Below, one piece after another: positions 28,995 through 30,219 of a stretch of DNA of 64,000 nucleotides. The position numbers were made by a program, and so were the translations under genes. The notes beneath the pieces are model-generated. The model saw nothing but the letters and a program-made list of their open reading frames with translations, was not told the DNA's origin and ran no database searches. How positions within the stretch are numbered: position 1 is the stretch's first letter; every line of letters begins with the position of its first letter. Source of the DNA: a virus (lineage: Duplodnaviria; Heunggongvirae; Uroviricota; Caudoviricetes); IMG/VR virus record IMGVR_UViG_2823670853_000002; one strand, given 5' to 3'.

Positions 28995-29780
28995 GCATTC
29001 ACCGCAACGGAAAGAGCATTCTTGGTGGACCTGTAGATTGGGATATGAACCCGTTACAGGAGAATGCTCTTACCTGTTACGTGCTCCGTTTCGTGGAGCT
29101 AACGGCGGGTGATCGGGCCGCACCAGACTGGACTTATTTCAGCGTTATGCTCATGCCAGAGAGTCAAACTGTGATGGTCGGTGCTGAACTCCGACACAGG
29201 GTTGTAGCAAGCCCCGCAAAGCGCGCACTACTGTAGTTGCGGCACATCAGCCTGTGCATTCACCACAATGTTGAGAACACTGGTTGTCACGCTGCAACGC
29301 AACATTTATTCGTAGATTGGGATATGACCCCGTTACGCCAGTGTTCTCAACGTTGTAGTGCCGGTTACGGTTCCGGCCAGGCCTCTTCCTCAACGGGGTG
29401 TTCTCCATACGGACTACCGTTTATTGGTCGTTCCTGCGGTTTATGTTGTGAAGCCAGATGCTTATCTTCTGGTTGCTTCAAAGAGCTGCACTTCATCACA
29501 ACGGTAAGAGCACTCGATGCATTTAAGCCAAGCCCCATAAGGGAGAATGCCCTTACCTGTTGTGTTGTGATGACCGGTGCTGATCTCCGGCTTGCGGTTA
29601 TTTCAGACTCTCACGGGCGTTTAATTGCCCCGCCGAACAGCTCTTTTCCGCAATAGCTGCAATGTCTTTCGCGCATCAGCCTGCGCATTCATCACAACGG
29701 TAAGGGTACTTCGTAGGGATTCGAACCCTCTGCCAAGCTCGGCGATCTCCGACGTCGCAAAATACCCTTACCTGTTGTGC
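28995..29780 (-). repeat. Array of four long-stem hairpin modules (28995-29084, 29256-29360, 29488-29572, 29685-29780)
   Basis: Plus-strand arms CA(C/T)CACAA(C/T)GGTAAG.. and ..CTTACCTGTTGTG are inverted complements enclosing variable 35-60 nt. Interiors carry T-arm-like GGGTTCATATCCC, GGGGTCATATCCC and GGGTTCGAATCCC (minus sense). Confidence 0.7.
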
Positions 29781-29856
29781 TGGTGCCGATTAACGGACTC
29801 GAACCGCTGACATCCTGCTTACAAGGCAGGCGCTCTACCAACTGAGCTAAACCGGC
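29781..29856 (-). tRNA. trnT: tRNA-Thr (UGU)
   Basis: Minus strand GCCGGTTTAGCTCAGTTGGTAGAGCGCCTGCCTTGTAAGCAGGATGTCAGCGGTTCGAGTCCGTTAATCGGCACCA; 76 nt; anticodon loop CTTGTAA. Confidence 0.9.
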
Positions 29857-29858
29857 AT

Positions 29859-29934
29859 TGGCGATGGTGGATGGATTTGAACCATCGACCCGTTGATTAA
29901 CAGTCAACCGCTCTAACCGCTGAGCTACACCATC
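29859..29934 (-). tRNA. trnA: tRNA-Asn (GUU)
   Basis: Minus strand GATGGTGTAGCTCAGCGGTTAGAGCGGTTGACTGTTAATCAACGGGTCGATGGTTCAAATCCATCCACCATCGCCA; 76 nt; 2-nt spacer to tRNA-Thr. Confidence 0.9.
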
Positions 29935-30137
29935 ACTTGCCGGGTACGTCTCCGGCGAGGGCTTCCACCTCCGTATGCTTTTCGGCGCACCGCGCCCTGG
30001 CTGCAATTCGGTAACAGGGGATGCACAACCCTGGCTTCCAGCGTGATTAGCGCCTTCAGCATGACGGGATATACCCGTAAATTCGTGGAACTGTACCCAA
30101 AGTGCTGTTAAGCACCGCTGTTACGCCGAAAAGAAAA

Positions 30138-30219
30138 CGCAACAGGAAAGGACGCTGACCAACAGATGGCCCCTTCTCGTTCATCTGGTTAATCACACCA
30201 GCGCCCTTACCTGTTGTGC
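30138..30219 (-). repeat. Fifth (promoter-proximal) long-stem hairpin module
   Basis: Minus CAACAGGTAAGGGCGCTG ... CAGCGTCCTTTCCTGTTG (16/18 pairing) enclosing an inner hairpin CCAGATG...CATCTG. Confidence 0.6.

Follow-up and report, generated by a model that had tools for sequence, protein, structure and literature searches.

A stretch of 64,000 nucleotides of phage DNA (IMG/VR record IMGVR_UViG_2823670853_000002; the whole stretch is called the window below) carries five copies of one long hairpin interleaved with tRNA genes. The question raised by this locus is what a hairpin with repeated arms and changing interiors does in a phage operon. A reading made from the letters alone (the sequence-only reading) had pointed out the five copies, and all five are present on the minus strand, at or near the places where it had put them. 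We call them L modules (L1 to L5, for their long stem). The L modules are a selected RNA structure on the tRNA-sense strand. Judging from a homologue in Escherichia coli K-12, they probably act as hairpins processed by the host ribonuclease III (RNase III) in repressor-controlled polycistronic early transcripts of temperate enterobacterial phages.

Five long-stem modules in the ban operon

The ban region of the window is 99.5% identical to the phage-plasmid RCS47 and about 99% identical to P1. All five modules lie on the minus strand of this P1-like phage-plasmid, within the C1-controlled ban operon. Their positions are as follows, with folding energies and z-scores against dinucleotide shuffles:

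29003-29081, minus strand: L1, interior formed by a minihelix-like element ending in CCA; fold of -41.9 kcal/mol, z -2.8; also found as an inverted repeat and in the helix scan
29261-29360, minus strand: L2, both inner arms replaced in a compensatory way; inverted repeat of 23 nt, 91%; fold of -55.6 kcal/mol, z -5.3
29497-29564, minus strand: L3, interior with the recurrent motif UCCCUUAUGGGGCUUGGCUUAAAUGCA; fold of -37.8 kcal/mol, z -5.0
29693-29779, minus strand: L4, interior with the T-loop hairpin AGGGTTCGAATCCCT; fold of -50.9 kcal/mol, z -5.6; also found as an inverted repeat and in the helix scan
30138-30218, minus strand: L5, not followed by a canonical small hairpin; fold of -45.9 kcal/mol, z -5.8; also found in the helix scan, and aligning with the family described below

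Every copy folds as a long hairpin, and none of 200 dinucleotide shuffles folds as well. The exchange of the inner stem on both arms of L2 is real (91% complementarity over 23 nt), and the claimed sequences of three T-arm-like hairpins and of a minihelix in L1 that ends in CCA are also correct. L4 had been said to follow directly on the CCA of tRNA-Thr; the last base of this tRNA is at 29781, and L4 begins one base further on. A small hairpin, here called hp1, had been reported after each module, which holds in part. The canonical form GCRCAGGCTGATGYGC stands after L4 (29686-29671) and L2 (29257-29242) only, L1 is followed by a variant (GCGGCTAAGCGC), and L3 and L5 are followed by none. The co-variation described for this hairpin is borne out: of the 124 viral-contig matches listed, 106 have G-C as the variable pair and 18 have A-U, and no mixed pair occurs. 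Junction motifs, small hairpins and L-type hairpins are found nowhere else in the 64-kb window.

Structure and co-variation of the L modules

When 34 natural modules were folded together with RNAalifold, a two-part stem (a 6-bp base and a 10-bp upper stem) was recovered unaided, with changes on both sides at 13 of the 16 pairs. Across 44 distinct arm pairs, 93 cells have changed on both sides, compared with 46 ± 6.7 in shuffles, and none of 500 shuffles reaches 93. Pairing according to this single structure holds in 75% of the cells only, which we attribute to arm classes without the bulge, because many double changes also appear when the partner is shifted by one column. The general layout is a 6-bp base (CACAAC/GUUGUG), often a one-base bulge, a conserved mismatch and then at least 10 bp. 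The arms alone form 18.8 pairs on average (minimum 16), and whole modules reach up to 27 bp. The stems thus have the features of an RNase III hairpin, namely about two helical turns with an internal mismatch or bulge.

The strand in tRNA sense is the more stable one in 51 of 56 modules (mean -37.5 versus -31.5 kcal/mol), and 81 of the 826 pairs in the modules are G.U pairs. Together, the G.U pairs and the asymmetry in stability indicate an RNA made from one strand. The frequent compensatory changes, the better folding of the sense strand and the broken state of the opposite reading frame plp in relatives (see below) thus bear out the earlier view that the copies are selected RNA hairpins rather than coding repeats. 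The interiors behave differently from the arms: their folding is on average barely above that of shuffles (mean z -0.56), although nine of 53 interiors have a z below -2, and a minimal module with a loop of 7 nt exists.

Distribution in other phages and in host genomes

A pattern search of IMG/VR with GTGRTGAATGCRCAGGCTGATGYGC returned at least 120 viral contigs; the locus counts given here (124 to 126) refer to the matches listed. A long hairpin, usually with the arms ACAACAGGTAAGAGCATTG and CAGTGCTCTTTCCGTTGTG, lies upstream of GTGRTGAATGCRCAGGCTGATGYGC at 76 or more of the 124 sites. Its arms are nearly constant or co-varying across the family, whereas the interiors are hypervariable, 30-110 nt long and essentially unrelated: 55 distinct interiors occur among the 89 modules listed, and 114 interior clusters among 150 module sequences (some reverse-strand readings included). 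A second conserved hairpin (hp2), GCCGGAGAUCAGCACCGGC followed by CACCACA, lies at most 300 nt downstream at 112 of the 126 sites listed. The variable middles between the two small hairpins are distinct in 82 cases among the matches listed.

The arrays are thus built from two alternating scaffolds, the long stem L and a unit S consisting of GUGGUGAAU, hp1, a variable middle, hp2 and CCACCACA. The complementary 9-mers CACCACAAC and GUUGUGGUG are common to both and able to close either unit. An S unit is followed by a terminator-bearing unit resembling a small RNA (sRNA), by a tRNA, by a ribosome-binding site with an open reading frame (ORF), or by the next L module.

The hosts are Enterobacterales, and the family occurs in P1-like, lambdoid and Shuimuvirus phages (a genus of Klebsiella siphophages). 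Since it spans unrelated phage types across this order, a shared host enzyme fits better than a phage protein. In three cases the context is a repressor-controlled early operon: Pban in P1, a site beside the repressor gene in phage mEp460, and dicBp in the K-12 prophage Qin. One S cassette of 135-145 nt (window 29564-29698; locus L006, 3001-3137; locus L007, 3001-3143) is 98% identical in P1-like phages, lambdoid phages and the Klebsiella siphophage IME207, and adjoins the repressor gene in the lambdoid phages. Among 5426 complete E. coli genomes, 845 contain it, and nothing is annotated beneath it; the L3 module is present in 460 of the same 5426.

The sequence-only reading had placed the modules in tRNA operons, and this framing does not hold for the family. 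A tRNA lies within 1.5 kb at 27 of the 126 related loci listed and is missing from that distance at the other 99, so that tRNA operons are not the specific setting of the L modules. Within the P1-like relatives the arrangement is strict: the last tRNA of the cluster is always followed, one base after its CCA, by an L module, whatever its interior. D6 and P7 (L002, 2580-2666; L004, 2568-2654) carry an additional long-arm tRNA-Ser(UGA) with its own L module one base after the CCA; the best Rfam score of this tRNA is for tRNA-Sec (43.1 bits, below threshold).

Rfam 15 contains no family for the L modules, whether the whole window is searched in gathering mode or the region at E-values up to 10. 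With 4227 models, ribozymes included, at E-values up to 10, the modules themselves received only chance-level matches to microRNA precursors. Two candidates from this comparison were set aside. The YrlA/bacterial Y RNA model (RF02553) gives a single match in the region (25.6 bits), which covers true tRNA genes and no module. A ribozyme was considered for hp1, which holds CUGAUG, but a conserved stem II and GAAA are missing and no Rfam ribozyme model matches. No description of the L family as such turned up in the limited literature searched. The exact arm pattern was also seen on contigs labelled Martelella alba and Geobacteraceae metagenome-assembled genome (L133, L134), far outside the Enterobacterales, where it is probably due to contamination or mis-binning.

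The homologue in prophage Qin

The link to RNase III comes from K-12. In its prophage Qin, an L module with the same layout of base, bulge, mismatch and upper stem separates ydfC from dicF (L128, 2174-2258); it can be aligned with the family and agrees with the consensus structure. Its arms (AAAGCGCA/UGCGCUUCC) belong to a class that also occurs within canonical L-S arrays (L021, L077, L098).

According to published work, the 190-nt precursor of DicF is RNase III-dependent: an rnc mutant lacks both this species and the ydfA transcript upstream of it. Primer extension put the 5′ end of the precursor “between 813 and 814” (Faubladier et al., 1990; bioRxiv 10.1101/2023.04.14.536235). Counting 190 nt back from the 3′ end of DicF leads to position 2246 of L128, and counting 813 from the start site that we predict from the -10 box of the TTGACC/TAATCT promoter (about 1438) leads to about 2250. 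From the RNA length and a presumed numbering origin, the RNase III-dependent 5′ end would thus fall in the 3′ arm of the L module (2239-2258). The loss of ydfA in the rnc mutant is what one would expect if the hairpin protects the RNA upstream of it. The RNase III processing role, one of those proposed earlier, is in this way backed by homology to the Qin dicBF module, which by this placement spans the published 5′ end of the DicF precursor.

The Qin site and the window share more than the hairpin with its CAYAAC/GUUGUG base, bulge, mismatch and at least 10 bp. Both operons are repressor-controlled and polycistronic and contain small RNAs and small ORFs, and the window also has a dicF-like leader, which is homologous to the 5′ part of the 190-nt K-12 precursor and not to DicF itself (compared by eye with Qin). 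The Qin module differs in being a single copy, in lacking neighbouring tRNAs and in its arm class. In published work, as far as we found, it is treated as a feature of DicF biogenesis and not as a member of a repeated family.

Between dicF and dicB, the spacer (the dicB leader) forms a unit of the S type, and its homologue in P1-like phages is the tciA leader. It is closed by a 12-bp helix (L128, 2452-2590). A table of an RNA-seq survey lists a weak RNase III-dependent signal of 26 reads at NC_000913.3 position 1,649,470; as this position lies within the dicB leader, S units may be RNase III targets too.

Putative processing of the ban transcript

The remaining features of the operon, along the minus strand and then on the opposite one, are:

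30588-30615, minus strand: C1 operator with promoters P1ban and P2ban, start of the operon; ATTGCTCTAATAAATT read directly, position by colinearity with the P1 annotation (Obanab, P1ban, P2ban)
30390-30491, minus strand: dicF-like leader, ending in a hairpin and T-run (about 30426-30400); ‘dicF-like region’ (misc_feature) in P1
29859-29934, minus strand: tRNA-Asn(GUU); ARAGORN, Rfam tRNA 74.5 bits
29781-29856, minus strand: tRNA-Thr(UGU), its CCA followed one base on by L4; ARAGORN, Rfam 72.9 bits
29564-29698, minus strand: S unit between L4 and L3, with GUGAUGAAU, hp1 (29686-29671), variable middle, hp2 GCCGGAGAUCAGCACCGGU (29591-29573) and CAUCACAAC; motif scan
29257-29242, minus strand: hp1 after L2, variant GCACAGGCUGAUGUGC; motif scan
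28887-29006, minus strand: S-type unit, 5′ leader of tciA, resembling the prophage sRNA STnc100; Rfam RF02076, 38 bits, E-value 2.9e-6
28415-28849, minus strand: tciA (TerB-like), first protein gene 3′ of the array; ORF of 144 aa, P1 annotation
28065-28140, minus strand: trnI (CAU anticodon), farther along the operon; tRNA-Met(cat) by ARAGORN, tRNA-Ile2 in the P1 annotation
29237-29656 and 29045-29236, plus strand: plp and upl, respectively, from the P1 annotation, antisense to the array

On the minus strand the order is thus C1 operator and ban promoters, dicF-like leader, L5, tRNA-Asn, tRNA-Thr, L4, S, L3, L2, S, L1, STnc100-like leader, tciABC, trnI and ban. The continuity of the operon (one transcript from Pban to ban) is taken from the P1 annotation. 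The downstream tRNA had been read as tRNA-Ile; ARAGORN calls it tRNA-Met(CAT), while the P1 annotation gives an ileX-like tRNA-Ile2.

On this layout, transcription from the C1-controlled ban promoters would run through the dicF-like leader, all modules, tciABC, trnI and ban, and each L module would fold into a stem of about 16-27 bp. By cutting these stems, RNase III would give the tRNAs, the S-type small RNAs and the mRNA independent ends and stabilities. If only the 3′ arm were cut, the upstream RNA would keep the hairpin as a protective 3′ cap, in the manner of the T7 sites. Cutting of the 5′ arm would give tRNA-Thr a short 3′ trailer that exonucleases could trim to the CCA; we propose this source of the trailer because an L module follows the last tRNA one base after its CCA. 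The apical insert, lying outside the part required by RNase III, would be largely free to vary.

Such sites have well-known counterparts. The early and late RNase III sites of T7 and those of the lambda N leader and sib are long irregular hairpins between the units of polycistronic RNAs, cut by the host enzyme, and mismatches inside the stem favour cutting at one position only, so that a protective 3′ hairpin remains. The L modules differ in their far longer, hypervariable apex, in being paired with an S unit and in being common to unrelated phage types; sequence similarity to the T7 and lambda sites is not expected.

The five modules lie between Pban and ban and separate the tRNAs, the S units and tciABC, and those of relatives are placed likewise. 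We favour processing by RNase III for this position, for the strand, for the unrelated phages that share a host, for the minimal module with its 7-nt loop and for the mostly unstructured interiors. Several points weigh against it. The cleavage of the five copies, as of any copy in a P1-like phage, is deduced from homology, RNase III dependence being published for the K-12 homologue only, and all consequences drawn above carry the same condition. The placement of the K-12 site itself depends on a stated RNA length and a presumed numbering origin, and the arms of that homologue are of another sequence class than those of most copies in the window. A preprint on the P1vir transcriptome does not resolve the array region. 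Several L stems have fewer than 22 uninterrupted base pairs. RNase III recognizes sequence loosely, which fails to explain why about 20 nt of the arms are nearly identical in more than 100 contexts with unrelated interiors. Two interior motifs, UCCCnnAUGGGnCUUGGCUUAAAUGCA (present in L3) and GUAACGGGkUCAUAUCCCAAUCUA (present in L1 and L2), each turn up with more than one arm class, and this implies that certain interiors are under selection. T-loop hairpins occur in five of 56 interiors where 0.16 would be expected, and one relative has a whole tRNA-like RNA at the L position. The feature is real, but the coexistence of near-constant scaffolds with full replacement of the inserts is unexplained by processing through RNase III.

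Two further observations concern the surroundings. The sequence directly after trnI in P1-like loci (uuugguuguaacacggcgucuggcacaugcgucguuagcggucugg; expected at about 28064-28010 of the window, minus strand) is a shared non-coding block seen in related loci, among them the lambdoid phage mEp460 (L006, 2745-2800), where it lies downstream of the repressor gene and upstream of the L/S array. Elsewhere in the window, Rfam matches above threshold were obtained at 48316-48490, 51947-52032 and 52101-52153 (all minus strand) for sok, C4 antisense RNA and the a1/b1 targets; C4 and its targets are expected in P1-type phage-plasmids, and sok is a plasmid antitoxin RNA.

S units and variable inserts

The S units, and not the L modules, resemble STnc100 and PasD. 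They share the layout of STnc100 (UGGUGAAU, hairpin, variable middle, hairpin, CACCA) and adjoin TerB/tciA-type genes and tRNAs, as reported for STnc100/PasD; a 2026 preprint connects STnc100 with the PasD sRNAs, which associate with Hfq, and remarks that they lie close to TerB genes and tRNAs. The unit after L1 matches model positions 31-147 of RF02076, and the corresponding units of D6 and of the K-12 dicB leader reach 39.6 and 34.4 bits. All S matches thus score between 34 and 40 bits, below the gathering score of 47. In the main class, the hp1 loop GCUGAU (29686-29671) is complementary to the hp2 loop AUCAGC (29591-29573), which suggests a loop-loop contact closing the unit; this complementarity is absent from the STnc100-type and dicB-leader variants. 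Some units that follow an S unit look, by eye, like DicF (GUUUGGCGGU plus terminator), and none in the sampled loci matches RF00039 at an E-value of 1e-3.

The variable middle of one S unit (L077, 4600-4646; L098, 1953-1999) matches 16S rRNA (31-37 bits with the Rfam SSU model; 29 nt at 90% to K-12 16S). Apart from tRNA-like stretches and two borderline matches of 13-14 nt (E-value 0.003), no other interior matches the K-12 rRNA operon. Host rRNA fragments were consequently rejected as a general pattern, since only this one S interior type matches 16S. Locus L122 has, on the reverse strand at about 4143-4262, a tRNA-like RNA whose anticodon loop is enlarged. This RNA takes the very place of an L module, between CACCACACAC and GUGUGUGGUG; it scores 41.7 bits with the Rfam tRNA model and is not called by ARAGORN. 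Antisense targets of the five interiors were looked for in the rest of the window, where complementarity stays at shuffle level.

Alternative explanations

The arms are conserved and the inserts change, so the insert itself could be the functional part. A possible, if unlikely, reading makes the L modules small stable RNA genes whose apical insert acts as a tRNA-like decoy, a protein-binding aptamer or a base-pairing seed, with the stem as scaffold or excision signal; it could coexist with RNase III cleavage. There is a known case to compare it with: species 1 and 2 of the T4 tRNA cluster are structured non-tRNA RNAs that lie among phage tRNA genes and are released by processing. The likeness is one of description only, and the L modules lie mostly away from tRNA genes. 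The conserved scaffold with about 100 unrelated interiors, the two motifs kept across arm classes, the T-loop enrichment, the tRNA-like RNA of L122, the nine interiors with low z and the neighbouring S units (which resemble Hfq-associated sRNAs reported to differ in their seeds) all suit such genes. Most interiors, though, are no more structured than shuffles and have no tRNA feature, one minimal module has a loop of just 7 nt, the window offers the five interiors no complementarity above chance, and expression of the L modules as RNAs is a supposition. The earlier proposal of tRNA-derived decoys is not supported: none of the five copies matches the Rfam tRNA model or is called by ARAGORN, strict T-loop hairpins are enriched yet confined to a minority of the 56 distinct interiors, and the T-hairpin of L1 is cleanly lost in the close relative L003. 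We regard as quite unlikely a wider version in which L and S together form a modular display of RNA cassettes. Here, two conserved scaffolds would be recognized by host RNases while hypervariable inserts are exchanged and released as small RNAs, some of them imitating host stable RNAs (tRNA T-arms, a whole tRNA-like molecule, a helix of 16S rRNA) and serving as decoys or regulators when phage and host, or two phages, are in conflict. In that case cleavage by RNase III would serve to release the inserts and not be the purpose in itself.

That the arms and the junction 9-mers act mainly as DNA, as short homologies or sites of an unknown recombinase that shuffle cassettes, with the hairpin as a by-product, is improbable, even though P1, P7 and the window do differ by whole cassettes: the S cassette between L4 and L3 is missing from P1 itself together with L3, and in P7 the tRNA-Thr is joined to an interior of the L3 type. 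The near-identical S cassette of P1-like, lambdoid and Klebsiella phages fits this too, as do arm ends of the form AAC...GTT, read directly from the sequence, which recall integron attC sites. The latter are likewise imperfect inverted repeats (50-140 nt) with unpaired stem bases and a variable centre between cassettes, a likeness seen by eye; the L modules differ in having no integron integrase nearby in annotated neighbourhoods, arms conserved over about 20 nt, G.U pairs and mostly non-coding cassettes. Divergent arm classes, however, stay paired because both sides change, something for which exchange driven by homology has no need; the G.U pairs and the difference in stability between the strands speak for RNA from one strand; the annotated examples show no integrase or recombinase linked to the arrays; and inverted arms favour inversion rather than cassette exchange. 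Recombination at the repeated arms is nevertheless part of the story, because the cassette breakpoints between P1, P7 and the window fall in the arms. Decay of tRNA genes left in the cluster is very improbable as an origin. It would account for the adjoining tRNA genes, the T-arm-like hairpins in three of five interiors, the CCA end of L1, the relatives whose array includes a tRNA-Ser or tRNA-Tyr that is still intact, and the tRNA-like interior of one relative, but no L module matches RF00005 at E-values up to 10 or is found by ARAGORN (L122 being the sole exception), most interiors have no T-loop, the long stem that is conserved has no counterpart in a tRNA, and most loci have no tRNA nearby. 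Cis antitermination signals of the nut or put kind, for which we see next to no chance, would use UGCUCUUU in the 3′ arm of the commonest class, a stretch that we take to resemble the boxA of lambda and rrn, and as boxB the 5-bp hairpin found 13 nt after the 3′ arm, just downstream of early promoters. A nut-like boxA/boxB was rejected because this stretch is locked in a stem of 20 bp and missing from other arm classes (such as GUGUUCUCAAC and GGGGUUAUCGAUG); the modules also stand in tandem, deep in operons and right after tRNAs, and no N-type system is known in P1. Hardly credible at all, finally, are coding repeats that would specify the proteins Plp and Upl from the opposite strand. The records of P1 and RCS47 do annotate plp (125 aa) and upl (63 aa) there, but in relatives plp is split across frames, interrupted by in-frame stops or truncated, its C-terminus is the antisense of tRNA-Thr, the start annotated for upl is missing in several relatives, and substitutions keep the RNA pairing and not the reading frame. 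The earlier statement that no credible ORF covers the region therefore stands in substance, despite the two P1 annotations. A small ORF at the junction (MNAQADA...) was also discarded: its ATG is usually GTG, it has no ribosome-binding site and is hypervariable downstream, and the two bases of the variable hairpin pair change jointly between G-C and A-U.

Implications

For the annotation of P1, the consequence is that plp is probably not a gene and upl probably not either, the case of upl being less clear. If the L modules are indeed RNase III processing hairpins, the site of DicF biogenesis would be the prototype of a large family that punctuates the early transcripts of many temperate phages of Enterobacterales, with related cassettes, currently unannotated, in hundreds of the 5426 complete E. 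coli genomes. It would also offer a concrete way for long precursors to release phage tRNAs and the small RNAs of prophages (DicF-like and STnc100/PasD-like).

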